DNA from: Lachnospiraceae bacterium
GTDB lineage: Bacteria; Bacillota; Clostridia; Lachnospirales; Lachnospiraceae
Assembly: GCA_045542475.1 (NCBI GenBank)
Contig: JAZQLB010000156.1
Location: 1-32,947 of the forward strand
Length of the DNA: 32,947 nucleotides
Direction of reading: 5' to 3'
Position numbers and translations under genes: made by a program. The notes beneath the pieces were generated by a model that searched no databases, was not told where the DNA came from, and worked only from the letters and a program-made list of their open reading frames with translations. Shown piece by piece: positions 8,891-20,814 of this stretch. Each line of letters begins with the position of its first letter. The first letter of the stretch is position 1.

Positions 8891-10384
8891 TTATAAATCA
8901 TCATAACGCGAATAGAATTCCGCAATACTTCCCATTCCCTTTATAGATTCAAAATCCTTGTCACACCATGTATGTGGCTGCTTATAGTTCTCAAAGGAAA
9001 CTATTCCCTTAACACCATTATTACATTCAAACATATACTGTGCCACACTCAGTACTCCACTGGAATTAATCATCATACCATATTCACTGTCATCAGGATA
9101 ATTTCTTACATCATCTACAATATATGGCTTATCAACACTTAAGCCGGATTCAATAAGCTGCTTATCTGAATTCAGCTTAAGCAGTGCAGCATCTGAAACC
9201 TCCTTTAGTGCATCACTTTCCCAGCTTACATATTTCTCATAGCCCTTTCTTGTAACCAGATATACACAGGCTCTTTCCACACTACAAAAGGCTGTTGCCA
9301 CCTCAAGCACTCTTGCAACACTTTCCCTACAGCTGTGCCTCTCCATAAGAATATTGTATCCGTAACTGATAAGGCTCTTTCCTGTTGGCGGTATCTGTGC
9401 ATTATGATAACCTGTCTCATGCTCAGCAAGTGCATCCTTTGCGGCAGCCTCTACCTTCTTACTATAGAATACTACCCCGACCTCCTTCTGGTATGATGCC
9501 TCTTTTAATGCATCATATGAATTACTAAGGAGATTATTTGCCGCACCCTCACTATTTATCAGAATACTTACACCTGCATTAACATGGGCATCAATCCCAT
9601 ACAACGCCCCCATATCACTAATACTGTTTTTAAAAGCATTAATTGAAGGAATAATATCCATAATCTGATTCATGTCACTGGTAAATATACCAAATCGGTT
9701 AAATGCAAGACGACCAATAATACAACCATATGAGAAACACCTTTTTAATCTGCTCATAATATTAATAAGCAATTCTCCGGAATCCTGCTCCTTAACAGCA
9801 GCAAACATCTCATAATACTCCGGAATCTCCGCCTGTATGCACACAAACTGGGTATACAAATCTGCATCGGCACATTTCTTAAGAATCATACTTAAAAATT
9901 CATCTGCCCCCATAATTCCGGCTGCTGTATACTTAATCTTCGCCAAATCAACTGCATTTTTATAATGGTTAATATTGCTGATACGCCCTATAACCTCAAC
10001 AGCTCTGTCATTATTGTATATGGTCTTTCCCGTTATTCTATACCAGCTATATTCCCTGTCCCCCTGCATTTTAAGGCGGAATTCTCCTTCAATAAATCTC
10101 CTGTTACCTTCTGTTATACTCTTTATCAGTTCACTATATCTGTCACGGTCATTATCATGTACCATCTTGGCATATTCTGTTGTCTTCTCCAGATTGAACA
10201 TCCATGCCCCATACTTTGACACTTCTTCCCTGTCCGTATACTGCATAAATTTACGTGTCAGCAAATCATAACGAAATACAATATCCCCAGCCATTACAGC
10301 AACCTCTTTAAAAACATCTCTGTCCATAGCTCCCATGATAACACCTTCTCTCTTGCAAATTTCGACATAATTATCTATATTCAT
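8891..10384 (-). CDS. Cytoplasmic sensor protein: PAS - degenerate GGDEF-like - GAF
   Basis: The N-terminal PAS-like segment includes EGEFRLKMQGDREYSWYRITGKTIYNN. The central region is GGDEF-like but has NRFGIF where RxGGDEF is expected. The C-terminal ~150 aa are GAF-like. The ATG at 10336 (M17) has a better RBS (GAGAAGG) than the ATG at 10384. Confidence 0.65.
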   Translation of the reverse strand: MNIDNYVEICKREGVIMGAMDRDVFKEVAVMAGDIVFRYDLLTRKFMQYTDREEVSKYGAWMFNLEKTTEYAKMVHDNDRDRYSELIKSITEGNRRFIEGEFRLKMQGDREYSWYRITGKTIYNNDRAVEVIGRISNINHYKNAVDLAKIKYTAAGIMGADEFLSMILKKCADADLYTQFVCIQAEIPEYYEMFAAVKEQDSGELLINIMSRLKRCFSYGCIIGRLAFNRFGIFTSDMNQIMDIIPSINAFKNSISDMGALYGIDAHVNAGVSILINSEGAANNLLSNSYDALKEASYQKEVGVVFYSKKVEAAAKDALAEHETGYHNAQIPPTGKSLISYGYNILMERHSCRESVARVLEVATAFCSVERACVYLVTRKGYEKYVSWESDALKEVSDAALLKLNSDKQLIESGLSVDKPYIVDDVRNYPDDSEYGMMINSSGVLSVAQYMFECNNGVKGIVSFENYKQPHTWCDKDFESIKGMGSIAEFYSRYDDL

Positions 10385-15075: not shown

Positions 15076-16167
15076 TTACTCCCATTCGCTGATTTGCAAT
15101 TCCAGACCTGTCATTTCTTTAATCTCGCTCCTTGTAAAGTAATTAACATACCAGGTACTCATTGGAAGCTTTTCGCCATTTTCTATATAATAGTAACCTT
15201 CTTTATCGCCCTGATTCACTAAATAATCTACATTATCGTCCTCACCATATACATCCTCATACACATAGTCGCAAAAATCATGGGATATCTCGTATTCATT
15301 TCCATCCACTCCAACAAAGCTATATGCCCAACAGTCTCCTTCAACCTCAAATCCCTCTTTTATAAGTATCTCATAAAGAGCTCCATAGCTTATAACATAA
15401 CCATATTTGTTAGCACATAAATCATCATAAAATTCATATGTTCCATCTTCTCTCTGGATACTGATACATTTACTGTAACCCTTAAGTATCTGCACAAGCT
15501 CTTCATCAGTAAAATCTTCCAGCTGGTCCTCAAAGCGGTAGCTGAGACATACACAAGCATATGTACTCAATGCATCCTCATAATCCGCCTCTGTAATCTT
15601 CTCGGCATTTATATATATGTCTCCATCAGCAAGCTCATATTCACATTGATTTCTTAATATATTCTGATGCTCTAAAAGAACAGATATTGTTATATCATAA
15701 TCAGTATCCTCTACATATTCCGAAAAATCAATAAGCTCATCAAACAGTTTTCTTAACTCTTCTCTGCTTTCATACTCTCCAACCAGACGATAACAAGGCA
15801 TTCCCTTGTCCTCATACTCCTCCAGCTCAATATCAGCAAGTCCGTCATACTCACCAAAAAGCTTCTTTAAAATAACAGTTTCATAGTTATCTGACAAAGA
15901 ACTAACTTCAGCTACCTGCCCCACTGAATGGTAATCAATTACATTAAAAACTATTTCCTCCTCACCGTTTAAGGTAACTGTCCACAAATAGTCCGTATAG
16001 TTCTTTCCATTCTCAATCACTTTCGGAGACGAGCTTACCGTAACGTTGTCAAAGCCTAATTCCTCTTTCACATATTTTTTAACATCTGATTTGGTATGCT
16101 TCTTCGCACAGCCGCCAAGTAACATGCCACACATTACAATCAGCATTATAAATACTATTTTTTTCAT
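15076..16167 (-). CDS. Acidic lipoprotein, unknown function
   Basis: Start placed at 16167 (MKKIVFIMLIVMCGMLLGGCAKK, lipobox LGGC) with AAGGAG 7 nt upstream. The track start at 16206 would lie upstream of the predicted transcription start. Confidence 0.65.
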   Translation of the reverse strand: MKKIVFIMLIVMCGMLLGGCAKKHTKSDVKKYVKEELGFDNVTVSSSPKVIENGKNYTDYLWTVTLNGEEEIVFNVIDYHSVGQVAEVSSLSDNYETVILKKLFGEYDGLADIELEEYEDKGMPCYRLVGEYESREELRKLFDELIDFSEYVEDTDYDITISVLLEHQNILRNQCEYELADGDIYINAEKITEADYEDALSTYACVCLSYRFEDQLEDFTDEELVQILKGYSKCISIQREDGTYEFYDDLCANKYGYVISYGALYEILIKEGFEVEGDCWAYSFVGVDGNEYEISHDFCDYVYEDVYGEDDNVDYLVNQGDKEGYYYIENGEKLPMSTWYVNYFTRSEIKEMTGLELQISEWE

Positions 16168-16209
16168 TTTTATACTCCTTTTATCTTCCTTTTTTATAAT
16201 ATCCAAGTG

Positions 16210-16560: not shown

Positions 16561-17433
16561 ATGATTAATGGCAAACCATTTGAAGAACTGGATTTACTTG
16601 ACGACTTTATGATTAACGCAGTAGTGGCAGACCCTGATGTGGGCGAGGCTTTTTGCAGGAAGCTGCTTTCCGTTCTTTTACAGCGAAGTATTGGGAAGCT
16701 GAACATTGTCGCACAAAGAATTATCCCTGCACCAACTCCCGGACTTCGAGGGATACGCATGGATGTGGAGATTACGGAATATTCAGACACAACGGAGACT
16801 GTACATAACATTTATGACCTTGAGCCACATTTGCAAAAAGATATGAATTTTCCAAGGCATAACCGCTTCTATCAGGCTAAGATAGACAGCCGCTACATGC
16901 ACAGTAGGGATAATGATTTTTCACATATGCCCAATCTGTATGTTATTACAATTACTAACTTTGATCCGTTTGGGCAGGATTATATGATGTATACTGTTAA
17001 TAACCAGTTCAATGAGGTTGATGAGCTTGAGTATGATGATGGGCTTAAGTTTATCTATTTTTATACAGGCGGGAGAAAGGGTGGTAATGAGGATATTAAG
17101 ATACTTTTGAAATATCTTCAGAATAGTACCATAGAGAATGCCACTAATGAAACTACAAAAGAAATTCATGAATATACCAGCAGAGTAAAGCTTATACCGG
17201 AGGTGAGGAAGGAATATATGAAATTTGAGGAATTGATGACGTATGCCAGACTTGAAGGACGTGATGATGGGCGTACTGATGCCATAATCGAACTTCTTTC
17301 TCTCCATGGTGAAGTTTCAACAGCACTGTACACACAGATAAAGTCTGAACGTAATTCTGCTACCTTACGCAGATGGCTTTTACTGGCTGCAAAGGTGGAA
17401 TCTATTGAGGAATTTGCTAATCAGATGATATAA
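16561..17433 (+). CDS. PD-(D/E)XK nuclease family transposase / Rpn-type recombination-promoting nuclease
   Basis: 290 aa with family-typical blocks LLDDFM, GIRMDVEI, IYDLEPH, RHNRFYQAKID and NFDPFGQDYMMY, plus a helical C-terminal tail. AAGGAG RBS. Confidence 0.8.
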   Translation: MINGKPFEELDLLDDFMINAVVADPDVGEAFCRKLLSVLLQRSIGKLNIVAQRIIPAPTPGLRGIRMDVEITEYSDTTETVHNIYDLEPHLQKDMNFPRHNRFYQAKIDSRYMHSRDNDFSHMPNLYVITITNFDPFGQDYMMYTVNNQFNEVDELEYDDGLKFIYFYTGGRKGGNEDIKILLKYLQNSTIENATNETTKEIHEYTSRVKLIPEVRKEYMKFEELMTYARLEGRDDGRTDAIIELLSLHGEVSTALYTQIKSERNSATLRRWLLLAAKVESIEEFANQMI

Positions 17434-17501: not shown

Positions 17502-17558
17502 AAAAAGGTATCGTTACTATTGTGATAACATATAGCCAATAGTAGCGATACCTTTTTT
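17502..17558. terminator. Bidirectional terminator between the convergent Rpn-type and HIT genes
   Basis: GGTATCGTTACTATT / AATAGTAGCGATACC 15-bp stem (one G-U/A-C position), flanked by AAAAA on the left and TTTTTT on the right. Confidence 0.8.
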
Positions 17559-17572
17559 CGTACTAATCCTAA

Positions 17573-17992
17573 TTATAACGCCGCCTTAATCTTCTCAATC
17601 ATCTCAGTATATTCTTCCTCACTAAGATACTTCTTATCCGGGTTCATAAGGAACACGCCACCCCACTCAAACTCATCCCTATACTTAGGTACAAGGTGGA
17701 AATGAAGATGATGACCTGTATCACCATAAGCACCATAATTAACCTTCTGTGGATTAAATACCTTCTGTAATGCAGCAGACACCTTAGCCACATCCTCAAA
17801 ATAAGCCGCTCTCTCCTGTGCAGTAAGCTCTGTCATATCACCAACATGCTTCTTATGAGCCAGAATAACTCTGCCTGGATGACTCTGCTCCTTAAATAAA
17901 TATACCTTACAGGTATCAAGCTCACATATCTTAATACCAAACTTGGCTACTAATTCGCCTTCCATGCAGTATGCACAATTATTATCTACCAT
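17573..17992 (-). CDS. HIT (histidine triad) family nucleotide hydrolase/transferase
   Basis: 139 aa from the ATG at 17992 (MVDNNCAYCMEGE...), with histidine triad GHHLHFHLVP. GGGAGG RBS. The 83-codon upstream extension in the track reads through a hairpin repeat and is rejected. Confidence 0.85.
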   Translation of the reverse strand: MVDNNCAYCMEGELVAKFGIKICELDTCKVYLFKEQSHPGRVILAHKKHVGDMTELTAQERAAYFEDVAKVSAALQKVFNPQKVNYGAYGDTGHHLHFHLVPKYRDEFEWGGVFLMNPDKKYLSEEEYTEMIEKIKAAL

Positions 17993-18026
17993 GATATCCT
18001 CCCGAAAAATAATATATTTCCTAATT

Positions 18027-18055
18027 ATTCTAATACTTATTATGGAGTATTTCAA
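18027..18055 (-). promoter_or_regulatory. Sigma-A-type promoter for the HIT gene
   Basis: On the minus strand: TTGAAA (18050-18055), 17-nt spacer, TAGAAT (18027-18032). Confidence 0.55.
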
Positions 18056-18107
18056 CCTTGAAAAAATGCATTTTATGGACAAAGTAATATAGAGAGTGGC
18101 GACCCTC

Positions 18108-18241
18108 GTGGTTGTGGGGGAGTACTGCGGAGGACACGTTCTCACTAAGTTGTTGCACGTAGCAGTACATAGGGCTGCAAAATACGCAGCCCAAGTACTC
18201 ACGGCACCAAAAAGTCCTCCGCAGTACTCCCCCACAACCAC
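18108..18241. repeat. Long-hairpin element, copy A (28-bp perfect arms around a 78-nt conserved interior)
   Basis: 18108-18135 GTGGTTGTGGGGGAGTACTGCGGAGGAC is the exact reverse complement of 18214-18241. Inner helices are AGTAC/GTACT (18164-18168 / 18195-18199) and GGGCTGC/GCAGCCC (18172-18178 / 18186-18192). Confidence 0.9.
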
Positions 18242-18319
18242 TTAAGGCTGCCGCTCGCTATAATGCTTCGCATTAAATAGCATTGCTTTTAACGCTTAAC
18301 TACAGCCCCCCGGATAGTG

Positions 18320-18347
18320 TTACATTAAAAAAGTATCAATATACAAT
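18320..18347 (+). promoter_or_regulatory. Candidate orphan promoter pointing into hairpin C and copy B
   Basis: TTACAT (18320-18325), 16-nt spacer, TACAAT (18342-18347). No ORF lies downstream. Confidence 0.3.
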
Positions 18348-18378
18348 TTCCAGCAGTATTATATTTACGCCATAACAG

Positions 18379-18419
18379 GTTTCGTCAGTAAAAAACGAAT
18401 GTTTTTTACGCCACGAAAC
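18379..18419. repeat. Hairpin C, AT-rich, abutting copy B
   Basis: GTTTCGT-CA-GTAAAAAAC-GAAT-GTTTTTTAC-GCC-ACGAAAC, giving a 9-bp inner plus 7-bp outer stem. TTTACGCCA is repeated at 18364-18372 and 18405-18413. Confidence 0.7.
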
Positions 18420-18420
18420 A

Positions 18421-18574
18421 GAAATCCCCGGGACGGGGCATAGTGTATTATGGAGGACTTTTTGATGCCGTCGGTACTTAAGCGGCGTTTTTTGCCGCTT
18501 TATGTACCGCTACGTGCAGCAACTTAGCGAGAGCGTGTCCTCCATAATACACTATGCCCCGTCCCGGGGATTTC
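18421..18574. repeat. Long-hairpin element, copy B (38-bp perfect arms around a 78-nt conserved interior), inverted relative to copy A
   Basis: 18421-18458 GAAATCCCCGGGACGGGGCATAGTGTATTATGGAGGAC is the exact reverse complement of 18537-18574. The reverse complement of interior 18459-18536 aligns without gaps to 18136-18213 at 64/78 identity. Confidence 0.9.
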
Positions 18575-18584
18575 GTCCGTGCCG

Positions 18585-18619
18585 AAAAAAATAGAAGGCT
18601 TTTTATTACAAGCCCTCTA
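18585..18619 (-). terminator. Rho-independent terminator of the GH105-GH112 operon
   Basis: On the minus strand: TAGAGGGCTT / AAGCCTTCTA 10-bp stem (one G-U that would be A-C on the plus strand), 8-nt loop, then UUUUUUU. Confidence 0.8.
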
Positions 18620-18660
18620 TTTCATATATATAATACCTTCTCCGTATTATCGCATATTAA

Positions 18661-20814
18661 TTATAACTTAATGATTACTGTATCATAAGCCTCGATAGTC
18701 TCAGTCTTGGCACCCTTAGCAGTTGTAACAGTAGTAGTCTGTGTCTCACCGCTATTGTTAATGATTACAAGCATGTCGCTGGCTGGATAGTATGCACATT
18801 CCGTGTATGGGTTATCTGTGATGTAGTCACCCTTAAGCGCTTCATTACCTGCCATAAGAATGGTGTTAAATAACATTCTTGTATTCTCAAGGCATATGTC
18901 AAAGTGTGACATATAGATACCCTTACCCTTACCAAACTCATTTACTGTCATGGTTGGGGCTCCATTAGCATCTGCAAGAACCTTAGCATTGCCATCTGTA
19001 AGGTATAGACCGTCACGACCCTTAATGTAGCAGCCCTTTGGCATAAGACCTTCCACAGTCTCCACCTCGTACTGCCACTTACCATGGCATACTCTTGCAC
19101 CTGTATCCTCGTCAATACCAAGAACATGTGCCATTCTGAAATATGTATCATAGCCTTCTGTTGCTGATGGCTCGTTAACACCGATAAATGCGCCGCCGTT
19201 GTATACCCACTCTGTGAGCTTTTCTACAACCTCATCATCCTTCCAGTTGTCGCCACCGCTCCATGCACTGCCTGCATAGCCTGCATTAATCACTACATCA
19301 ACATCCTTTAATGCACCATTCTTAACATCCTCAAAGCTGATAAATGATACATCCACAGGAAGTCCTGACAAAGCTTCATTAATGTGAATAAGGTCGTGCA
19401 TATATGTCTCATGGAAATGTCCTGACAATGTCCATGAACGTAATTTACCCCAGCTGTGAAGTACTGCAACCTTAGTCTTAATAGATGTTGGTGCACCTGC
19501 CGCATGGAAATCCTTAACCAGTCTGAACTCATCTGCCACCTTCTCGATATAATCGCAGAAATCTGGGAATGGCTCTACAAGATGTAAATATCCGCCAAGT
19601 CCGATTCTGTCAACAGGCTGACGAAGAAGTGCTCTTCTTATGCTGTTCCAGAACTTCTTAGCTTCAAGTGTAGGGTCGCCGCCCTCCATAAAGGTTGGCG
19701 CTCCACCAAGTCCTACAGGGAACAGATATGGGTGAAGTCTAAGCTCATGAGTCGGAACATCCACACCTGAGCATAATCTTGCCTCATAGCCTGAGAATAC
19801 ACACTTAATAAGTCCGTCAAAGCCAAACTCTGAAAATCTTCCGTTGTATGGCTCAATACCTACCCAGCTGTCGTCATAGAATACATATGCCTTCTTGCCG
19901 TATTCATGAACCATATCGATAAGCTCTTTACCAAATCCGATTACGAAGTCATTAATGAACTCCATCCAGTCTGCCTTTTCCTTAGTGCCAGGCATATGGG
20001 TTACATGAAGCTGTCCCTTATTGATGAAATCCTCTGCTGTAAGGCTGTAGCCATACTTTTTAGCAAACTCATCAAGAGCAAGCGGACTTACTGTAAAGTC
20101 ATATGATGCCCAGTCAGAGAAGAGATGTCTGTTTCTTGTATCTCCGCCCCAAATCCATACGAAGTTATAGAACATAGATGTGAATCTTACAACAGTTGTT
20201 GCAGGATGTGTCTCGCACCAGTTCTTCATCCAAGAAAGCATATACTCTCTTGTCTCAGGATGACGTGGGTCAATCTGCATAAGATGCTCTTTTGTCCAGT
20301 TGTTGGTTGTGTGGTTGTACATGGAAATCTCTTCCCATATACGATAAGCCATAAAGCTTACTGTGTACTTATGCCATGGTGTAATTCCTTTTACAGTAAC
20401 CTTACCATCTGCATAACTCCACTTATCAGCAGGAACTAAGGTATTATTGGTTCTGTCGTATACCTGCCAATATTTAATAGAATCCTCTGTCTCGTTAATA
20501 GAGAACTGCTCTGCAAAGAAATCCTTCATTAACTCGATTGTGATTGTATCGCTGTCAGCCACAACAGGCTGTGTCATAAGGAAAGACTGCTGAAGCTTAT
20601 CCATATTCTTCTTAGCCCACTCGTTGTGGTCTCTGATTATACATATTGTTGAATATATTCCGTAGCCTGCGTTGATTATCTCGTCAGAAAGAACTGTACC
20701 ATCGCTGTCACGGATAACGTCTGCACCCCACTTTTTTGCCATCTCAAGAGTGAGTGCCTCATATCCTGATTCTCCCGGTAATGTAAAACTACCCTTTGTA
20801 TTAACCTCAGACAT
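18661..20814 (-). CDS. GH112 beta-galactoside phosphorylase (lacto-N-biose / galacto-N-biose / Gal-beta-1,4-Rha phosphorylase family)
   Basis: 717 aa, alignable by eye along its length to my recollection of the Bifidobacterium lacto-N-biose phosphorylase (e.g. FTLP, WGADVIRDSDGT, HNEW, FFAEQ, KYWQV, YTVSFMAY, MYNH, VVRFTSMFY, ISFEDV, GGAFIGVGEPS). GGGAGG RBS. Confidence 0.88.
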   Translation of the reverse strand: MSEVNTKGSFTLPGESGYEALTLEMAKKWGADVIRDSDGTVLSDEIINAGYGIYSTICIIRDHNEWAKKNMDKLQQSFLMTQPVVADSDTITIELMKDFFAEQFSINETEDSIKYWQVYDRTNNTLVPADKWSYADGKVTVKGITPWHKYTVSFMAYRIWEEISMYNHTTNNWTKEHLMQIDPRHPETREYMLSWMKNWCETHPATTVVRFTSMFYNFVWIWGGDTRNRHLFSDWASYDFTVSPLALDEFAKKYGYSLTAEDFINKGQLHVTHMPGTKEKADWMEFINDFVIGFGKELIDMVHEYGKKAYVFYDDSWVGIEPYNGRFSEFGFDGLIKCVFSGYEARLCSGVDVPTHELRLHPYLFPVGLGGAPTFMEGGDPTLEAKKFWNSIRRALLRQPVDRIGLGGYLHLVEPFPDFCDYIEKVADEFRLVKDFHAAGAPTSIKTKVAVLHSWGKLRSWTLSGHFHETYMHDLIHINEALSGLPVDVSFISFEDVKNGALKDVDVVINAGYAGSAWSGGDNWKDDEVVEKLTEWVYNGGAFIGVNEPSATEGYDTYFRMAHVLGIDEDTGARVCHGKWQYEVETVEGLMPKGCYIKGRDGLYLTDGNAKVLADANGAPTMTVNEFGKGKGIYMSHFDICLENTRMLFNTILMAGNEALKGDYITDNPYTECAYYPASDMLVIINNSGETQTTTVTTAKGAKTETIEAYDTVIIKL

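Follow-up and report, generated by a model that had tools for sequence, protein, structure and literature searches.

Two inverted copies of a rare hairpin family with a conserved core and locus-specific arms in a Lachnospiraceae genome

What are the two large palindromes that separate a lacto-N-biose phosphorylase (GH112) gene from a HIT-family gene in a Lachnospiraceae bacterium, and how might they have arisen? The stretch of DNA analyzed here (referred to as the window; 32,947 nucleotides [nt], contig JAZQLB010000156.1 of assembly GCA_045542475.1) carries these two elements, A and B, in inverted orientation between positions 18108 and 18574. The feature is real, nonrandom, and undescribed. 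Our tentative explanation, which we hold at a little under even odds, is that A and B are members of a rare, undescribed mobile hairpin of the miniature inverted-repeat transposable element (MITE)/REPIN kind, which would act as single-stranded DNA and whose stems would be extended and kept Watson-Crick by fold-back template switching. The elements and their flanking genes are as follows (L017 and L018 are copies at other loci, and P2 is a helix of the core; all three are described below).

17573 to 17992, minus strand: HIT-family gene, one flank of the hairpin region.
18108 to 18241, no strand assigned: element A, a perfect 28-bp stem (arms 18108 to 18135 and 18214 to 18241) around a 78-nt interior.
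18122 to 18227, minus strand ("sense-2"): core of A, 106 nt, homologous to B, L017, and L018.
18136 to 18213, no strand assigned: interior of A, 78 nt, with P2 (an irregular hairpin) and the junction segment of 14 nt (18136 to 18149).
18421 to 18574, no strand assigned: element B, a perfect 38-bp stem (arms 18421 to 18458 and 18537 to 18574) around a 78-nt interior, inverted relative to A.
18445 to 18550, plus strand ("sense-2"): core of B, the 106-nt homologous unit, scoring 124.7 bits against covariance model R1.
18661 to 20814, minus strand: GH112 gene, the other flank of the hairpin region.

A preliminary description of this locus, made from the sequence alone, had given 78-nt interiors that are reverse complements of each other at 64/78 positions and had placed the pair between the GH112 terminator and the HIT promoter. 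We obtained the same coordinates, interior lengths, and identity (the interiors match at only 21/78 positions in direct orientation), and the 106-nt cores are identical at 86/106 positions. The placement also held: a promoter scan found a HIT promoter-like site at 18055 to 18027, with its -35 box at 18055 to 18050, and the GH112 terminator can be read from the sequence as a 13-nt inverted repeat at 18589 to 18622 followed by seven T on the minus strand; the terminator scan did not list this site on that strand. Nowhere else in the whole window does a perfect inverted repeat with a loop of at most 150 nt reach 16 bp. A and B are GC rich, as had been stated (54% in A and 53% in B, compared to 37% in the spacer and 39% in the window). 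When folded as 134-nt versions, they reach -83 to -89 kcal/mol on both strands (z scores of -11 to -13), and 0 of 200 shuffled sequences folded as well. Neither long hairpin is followed by a T run on either strand, and they thus lack the U run that follows the GC-rich stem of an intrinsic terminator.

The two internal strands of 28 and 14 nt that the preliminary description had left unpaired turned out to pair with each other through UUG/CAA, UGC/GCA, and CGU/ACG helices, which makes each element one long irregular hairpin. Outside this main helix lies a single 14-nt segment, ACGYTCTCRCTAAG, which itself holds a 2-bp mini-hairpin. In A, the "sense-1" strand, which carries 5'-GGAGGAC-ACGYTCTCRCTAAG..., is the plus strand, and on it the mini-hairpin is G-T[TCTC]A-C at 18138 to 18145, or GT[GAGA]AC on the other strand; its counterpart in B is GC[GAGA]GC at 18527 to 18534. 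Comparison of the two cores over 36 base pairs revealed seven double changes and no one-sided change, with a single cell unpaired, and the partners pair at 98.6% compared to 31 to 51% when they are slid out of register. An eighth compensated pair can be read at arm position 15, which completes the eight compensated pairs without disruption that had been reported. An adapter or assembly artifact was rejected as a source of these copies, which differ at ~19% of positions, with 16 of 20 differences being transitions by count and the changes being compensated. As a separate observation on B, its arms each contain a small palindrome, CCCCGGGACGGGG, at 18426 to 18438 and 18557 to 18569, and the terminator scan flags CCCCGGGACGGGG on the minus strand; the B stem could therefore form side hairpins as well.

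Among the checks that the preliminary description had proposed were an Rfam scan, a search for homologs, and a test of covariation, and the outcome of all three favored its reading over refutation. Exact scans with a 19-mer conserved between A and B and with a two-block pattern yielded 0 matches in GTDB representative genomes and 0 in viral contigs, and later family-wide patterns also yielded 0 in viral contigs; in JGI metagenomes, the 19-mer gave two matches only, both shown to be chance. By BLAST, no plasmid matched A or the L018 core and no phage matched A; a query of concatenated six-frame peptides had no match at an E value of ≤10 in a word-indexed protein database, and exact look-ups of the window HIT and GH112 proteins returned no record. 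The search that succeeded compared a profile of the aligned A and B open frames to 1.84 billion representative proteins with no word index. It recovered six short open reading frames (ORFs) of 48 to 133 amino acids (E values of 6e-11 to 3e-5), along with two matches that were repetitive false positives. Each of the six is a spurious gene call spanning a homologous hairpin, and together they represent about five other loci.

Two of these loci were available as DNA. In L017, a 575-nt ENA contig, the element lies at 141 to 274, 50 nt past an intrinsic terminator. L018 covers 20 kb of an ENA contig of 43.8 kb, whose sample also yielded one of the closest HIT relatives; here, the element occupies 10044 to 10177, with genes for peptidase M20 and PGI on its two sides. 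At the protein level, P0246, P0249, and P0250 are orthologs of the L018 locus, while P0243, P0244, and P0247 are further loci. The homologs thus sit at unrelated intergenic sites in different assemblies, which share no common neighboring gene. A covariance model of the core scored all four DNA copies at 102 to 125 bits on one strand and at ~20 bits on the other (for A, 122.6 bits on the minus strand and 19.8 bits on the plus strand). The family is rare and undescribed and occurs in a few uncultured gut-type Clostridia. One of the protein-level loci, P0247 (NCBI, 9.5-kb contig), has an ORF that opens with a B-type inner arm (ATG TAT TAT GGA GGA...) and runs on into sequence resembling the terminator-side flank of B; by this resemblance, it may be an ortholog of B in a related metagenome-assembled genome.

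No gaps are needed to align the four DNA copies, whose interiors all measure 78 nt. The inherited unit spans ~100 to 106 nt and consists of an 11- to 14-bp terminal inverted repeat (CTRYGGAGGAC...GTCCTCCRYAG) around the fixed interior; this inner arm repeat is common to A, B, and L017 and is partly present in L018. The RNAalifold consensus, given on sense-2 (A minus, B plus, L017 plus, and L018 plus), is a three-way junction with the following parts.

P1: long basal stem, of which only the last 3 bp (GAC/GUC) are invariant.
U-rich joiner: between P1 and P2.
P2: long irregular hairpin.
Joiner (A)ACUUAG: between P2 and P3.
P3: 2-bp helix, G-Y[GAGA]R-C, then GU, then the 3' strand of P1.

Across the four copies, 19 of 39 core pairs have changed on both sides and 0 on one side, and 95.5% of cells form a standard pair. 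None of 500 shuffles equaled these values, and slid partners paired at 26 to 51% with one to three double changes. The UGC/GCA helix of P2, which joins the strands formerly taken to be unpaired, becomes CUC/GAG in L017, and the four copies are split evenly between U-A and C-G at the Y-R pair of P3. Unpaired positions are better conserved than paired ones (19/28 columns invariant compared to 36/78). A fair reading of these alignments is that the core may be conserved as a folded single strand. Thus, the earlier suggestion of a selected RNA or single-stranded DNA structure stands for the core, where both covariation and conserved unpaired bases speak for it; as discussed below, it does not extend to the arms, which are locus specific and show flank copying. 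A, B, and L017 are mutually equidistant (84 to 86 of 106 positions identical) and L018 is farther, indicating that A and B are not a recent local duplicate.

Several other interpretations of the core were considered and rejected. The frame at B 18453 to 18525 (plus strand) and L017 ~163 to 235 has the GGAGG of the 5' arm followed 5 nt on by TTG (with ATG as the next codon in B), and it ends at the TAG of CTTAG. A conserved micro-ORF was rejected because this ~21-codon frame of B and L017 shrinks to 3 codons in A and is missing in L018; judged from these sequences and a six-frame translation, the frame is probably not a gene. The idea that A and B are the two ends of one ~470-nt transposon was rejected because the outer ends carry no direct duplication, homology ends symmetrically around each core, and single copies occur elsewhere. 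An arm of B resembles a dif site, and TAGCGA resembles the CS-6 box of plasmid single-strand origins; both likenesses were dismissed as coincidence, since each is found in some copies only. In L017, an AT-rich palindrome with repeated TTTAGTAAATT motifs and an operator-like look lies at 328 to 387, ~60 nt downstream of the element; it explains microRNA-type noise matches in an Rfam scan.

The arms tell a different story from the core. Beyond the inner 11 to 14 bp, they are specific to each locus, with no relation between copies, yet their two sides are complementary, and at all four loci palindromy reaches 34 to ~100 nt, fading outward into flanking DNA. The arms, the outer arms in the window, and the remaining spacer are as follows.

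Arms of A: 28/28 pairs perfect.
Arms of B: 38/38 pairs perfect.
Arms of L017: 27/28 pairs, then 6 more bp past a 3-nt bulge.
Arms of L018: ~57 to 63 nt at ~85% identity, with indels.
18046 to 18107, no strand assigned: outer left arm of A, the HIT promoter-upstream flank, including the -35 box at 18055 to 18050.
18242 to 18303, no strand assigned: outer right arm of A, inverted copy of 18046 to 18107, decayed (45/67 columns).
18304 to 18352, no strand assigned: spacer remainder of 49 nt outside both palindromes (coordinates by subtraction).
18353 to 18420, no strand assigned: outer left arm of B, inverted copy of the GH112 terminator flank, decayed (46/72 columns compared to 18575 to 18642).
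18575 to 18642, no strand assigned: outer right arm of B, with the intact GH112 intrinsic terminator (18622 to 18589, minus strand).

The symmetry of the outer arms of A scored 28, above all 4,000 real-sequence controls, while 0.5% to 1.6% of controls scored as high as the outer arms of B. The 179-nt spacer between the elements is thus mostly two decayed inverted flank copies plus the 49-nt remainder. Judging by which half is functional, we infer that 18046 to 18107 and 18575 to 18642 would be the original halves. The L018 arms were also compared, codon by codon, to the orthologous ORF P0250, and amino acid changes fall at arm partner positions: A10031 becomes G with T10193 changing to C or A; C10056 becomes T with G10165 changing to A, C, or T; G10042 becomes C or T with A10182 changing to G; and the T.G pair 10053/10168 becomes C-G. 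This pattern is suggestive of ongoing compensation at the L018 locus. Compensated stem changes are usually taken as proof of a selected RNA. For arms that are locus specific and decay outward, however, copying of the flank in reverse complement at the DNA level is simpler and better explains their full compensation than stepwise selection does.

Template switching is known to leave reverse-complement copies nearby, to create perfect stems in one event, and to repair pairing by multibase changes (PMC8794818). It also homogenizes and expands inverted-repeat arms and can invert the spacer (PMC8604942, PMC13100816), and fold-back priming gives inverted duplications in yeast (PMC10622511). Such a process explains locus-specific arms, perfection near the core, and outward decay, but it fails to explain a conserved 78-nt core at unrelated loci, and our proposal accordingly has two layers. 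The first would be a small mobile, or formerly mobile, hairpin unit with loops under sequence constraint; a putative trans-acting enzyme would recognize the conserved loops and move the unit as single-stranded DNA. Once placed, the strong hairpin would cause the nascent strand to fold back on itself and to copy the neighboring flank as its reverse complement, by template switching or fold-back priming. This hairpin-driven flank copying, the second layer, would lengthen the stem and keep it perfectly complementary, as the pattern and the known mechanism together suggest. Sister taxa with HIT proteins 89 to 93% identical retain the GH112-HIT synteny, and their intergenic gaps (205 and 231 nt, compared to 668 nt in the window) contain no hairpin element. 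By arithmetic on the coordinates, the window without both elements and both inner copies would have a gap of ~250 nt, near that of the sisters. In the window, the two layers would therefore have added ~420 nt to an intergenic region otherwise of ~250 nt and left decayed inverted copies of the HIT promoter-upstream and GH112 terminator flanks between the two cores.

A bolder version, which we regard as improbable, is that the family represents a new type of mobile DNA in which a single-stranded hairpin is joined to its target by the 5' end and the folded-back 3' end primes flank copying, leaving an inverted instead of a direct flank duplication as its signature. In both window copies, the presumed original flank lies 5' of the sense-1 core strand and the decayed copy lies 3' (two cases, resting on which half is taken as original), an arrangement that fits integration of a 5'-joined hairpin.

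To which known systems is this family related? Rfam 15 had 0 matches in the whole window at the gathering threshold, and permissive Rfam scans of 17950 to 18700, of L017, and of L018 9900 to 10400 gave only generic hairpin or microRNA noise far under the threshold or nothing; no copy matches an Rfam family. Like MITEs, the copies share terminal inverted repeats (the inner 11 to 14 bp). They occur at unrelated loci in different assemblies, with two adjacent copies in 33 kb of the window and one in the 20 kb of L018. As far as its sequence goes, the family does look MITE/REPIN-like in kind, but no named family was matched. Thus, the preliminary description was right that the elements fit no named family, whereas its statement that they match no class was too strong given the 11- to 14-bp terminal repeats and dispersed intergenic sites.

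REPs are 20 to 40 nt long, REPINs are ~100 nt and built from two conserved REPs, and both are mobilized by RAYT (TnpA-REP) transposases, with tens to hundreds of copies in a genome that has a RAYT gene (PMC3116915, PMC3337134, PMC8266576). Like REP, BIME, and REPIN sequences, A and B are short extragenic palindromes found after genes, paired in inverted orientation within a few hundred nucleotides and devoid of coding capacity, with a hairpin that is thought to form in single-stranded DNA and pairing that is kept between copies. In contrast to REPs and REPINs, the hairpin center is conserved here and the arms are locus specific, the copy number is apparently low, the window has no RAYT gene, and the hosts are Clostridia-like. 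The structured bacterial MITEs Correia, ERIC, RUP/BOX, and bcr1 have direct target-site duplications, conserved termini, and stems made of element sequence. Our family resembles them in being ~100 to 150 bp long and intergenic, with terminal inverted repeats and a stable predicted hairpin, but on inspection of four junctions it shows no direct duplication and instead carries long inverted flank duplications. Template-switch hairpins (PMC8794818, PMC8604942, PMC13100816) share its perfect stems, multibase compensation, outward arm growth, and nearby reverse-complement copies; they are, however, the product of a mutation mechanism and not a family, which leaves the conserved 78-nt core at unrelated loci unexplained. 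Integron attC sites likewise involve recognition of the shape of a folded single strand, have variable lengths, and use extrahelical bases to mark the strand. In attC, however, the conserved boxes are outer and the center is variable, the reverse of what we found, and attC sites lie in cassette arrays beside an integrase; the window is ordinary chromosome with neither. The ends of IS200/IS605 elements and of their nonautonomous derivatives are imperfect hairpins of ~20 nt, with the two ends in direct orientation on the same strand. Points of likeness are imperfect hairpins that are read as single-stranded DNA and the absence of terminal target duplication, but the window contains no TnpA or TnpB gene and the Rfam searches were empty.

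The most serious alternative to a mobile DNA hairpin is a structured noncoding RNA, such as an mRNA-protecting hairpin of a 3' untranslated or intergenic region, an RNase III site that releases the core, or a protein-binding RNA, with the basal stem serving as a sequence-free processing stalk. We consider this possible but unlikely. Strong covariation, the fixed 78-nt interior, and the conserved unpaired junction bases would all suit an RNA, as would the GAGA (GNRA-type) loop of the mini-hairpin on the strand preferred by the covariance model (122 versus 20 bits), which is the sense of the upstream gene in three of four copies, and the position of every copy just downstream of a gene or its terminator. 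This strand preference, though strong, merely mirrors the asymmetric loops, and both strands of A and B fold equally well. The pairing itself is not what RNA helices usually show: the 112 pairs of A and B include no G-U pair (0/50 and 0/62), and the 19 variable core pairs went from Watson-Crick to Watson-Crick only, with no G-U intermediate or one-sided (wobble) change. Perfect duplexes of 28 to 38 bp are also atypical of stable bacterial RNAs, and no copy matches Rfam. Across the four copies, homology ends symmetrically within the arms, and the core is accompanied by no conserved promoter or terminator. Relative to upstream transcription, three copies face one way and B faces the other; A and B lie past a strong terminator and upstream of the next promoter, and one outer arm is built from promoter-upstream DNA. 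The lack of G-U intermediates, the lack of a traveling promoter or terminator, and the occurrence of both orientations together argue for DNA rather than RNA.

If the functional form is DNA, it need not be mobile. A structural site used by the host (a cruciform or single-strand hairpin bound by a recombination, replication, or nucleoid protein) that is neither selfish nor presently mobile would account for Watson-Crick-only pairing that is equal on both strands, for the conserved unpaired bases, for an apparently low copy number, and for vertical inheritance of the L018 locus across related strains with compensated arms. We nevertheless think it improbable, as the element occurs at unrelated loci without a common neighbor gene, is missing where sister taxa have the same GH112-HIT junction, and has no identified partner protein. 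An inverton, in which a recombinase would flip the 78-bp segment between perfect inverted repeats and A and B would be caught in opposite states, is the least credible of the alternatives: perfect 28- and 38-bp repeats do flank an asymmetric segment seen in both orientations, but the interior is itself a covarying hairpin with no promoter-like site, the 33-kb window encodes no invertase, and the repeats differ at each locus past 11 to 14 bp, so that no common recombinase site spans them. Moreover, a 78-bp segment is about as short as intramolecular site-specific recombination allows. It is also very improbable that the hairpins are purely a mutational by-product, functionless and immobile, that was grown and locally duplicated by replication template switching. 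The inverted arrangement of two copies merely 323 nt apart, the perfect arms, and the outer palindromy that decays into the flanks are what such a process would leave, and template switching does yield reverse-complement copies and perfect stems (PMC8794818); the homologs, with the same 78-nt core at unrelated loci in other assemblies, largely refute it, L017 is as near to A and to B as those two are to each other, and asymmetric features (the 14-nt junction, bulges, and mismatch positions) are kept in all copies, with unpaired bases the most conserved.

Several observations weigh against a mobile single-stranded DNA hairpin extended by template switching. The fixed interior length, the GNRA-type loop, the conserved junction bases, and one invariant G.U at the apical loop are equally typical of functional RNA. 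Inspection of four junctions found none of the direct target-site duplication of MITEs, and the sequences outside are instead inverted repeats. The window holds no transposase or recombinase linked to the element, the sole candidate being an apparently unlinked Rpn-like gene. The family evidence derives from four DNA copies (A, B, L017, and L018); a pattern that fits three of these four had 0 matches in 185,579 species-representative genomes, and a filter-free covariance-model search found no extra copy in the window, L018, or the sister loci, so the copy number looks low. The original half of each outer palindrome was chosen by its function. In the P0250 comparison, which was derived from protein sequence, the codon determines one base of each pair and, for the other, only its position.

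A and B add an undescribed repeat family from poorly sampled gut- or rumen-type Clostridia, and the family may reveal an unrecognized way of inserting DNA. If the presence of a conserved core in stems rebuilt from their own flanks is general, it would offer a natural system for hairpin-driven template switching that reshapes bacterial promoters and terminators. Such elements produce spurious ORF calls and may affect the stability or read-through of neighboring transcripts.

The remainder of the window is typical of a chromosome, with genes for potassium uptake, glycosyltransferases, an ABC sugar transporter, GH88, and Fur and MarR regulators; no integrase, invertase, classical transposase, RAYT-like gene, or TnpA/TnpB was found among the genes of the 33-kb window. 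The Rpn-like gene mentioned above (16561 to 17433, plus strand) encodes a 290-amino-acid distant member of the Rpn family of PD-(D/E)XK "recombination-promoting nuclease/putative transposase" proteins, and its match to TIGR01784 (E = 6.7e-12, 45.8 bits) falls under the 52.1 cutoff. A link between it and the hairpins was rejected because seven loci bearing its homologs (two distinct contexts) lack a related hairpin or long perfect inverted repeat; in addition, the gene table of the 20-kb L018 locus lists no Pfam-unannotated gene of Rpn-like size. This gene adjoins one for a 376-amino-acid putative lipoprotein (15076 to 16206, minus strand), and the two form a ~2.5-kb insertion between HIT and Zn-dependent phospholipase C, which are neighbors in the relative L003. 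Homologs of the Rpn-like gene are numerous in Lachnospiraceae, often on 1- to 2-kb contigs, like repeated genes.

The HIT gene itself gave rise to a few further observations. Its closest relative (93% identity) has a ParE toxin (L009 27 to 383) rather than GH112 upstream of HIT, indicating that the HIT neighborhood is variable within the clade. The HIT homologs P0002 (L001) and P0009, of 185 and 212 amino acids, have internal tandem duplications of part of the HIT domain and come from short metagenome contigs; these duplications could be assembly artifacts or real. Finally, a 21-bp inverted repeat (95% complementary) at 17502 to 17557, between the convergent Rpn-like and HIT genes, is probably a two-way terminator.

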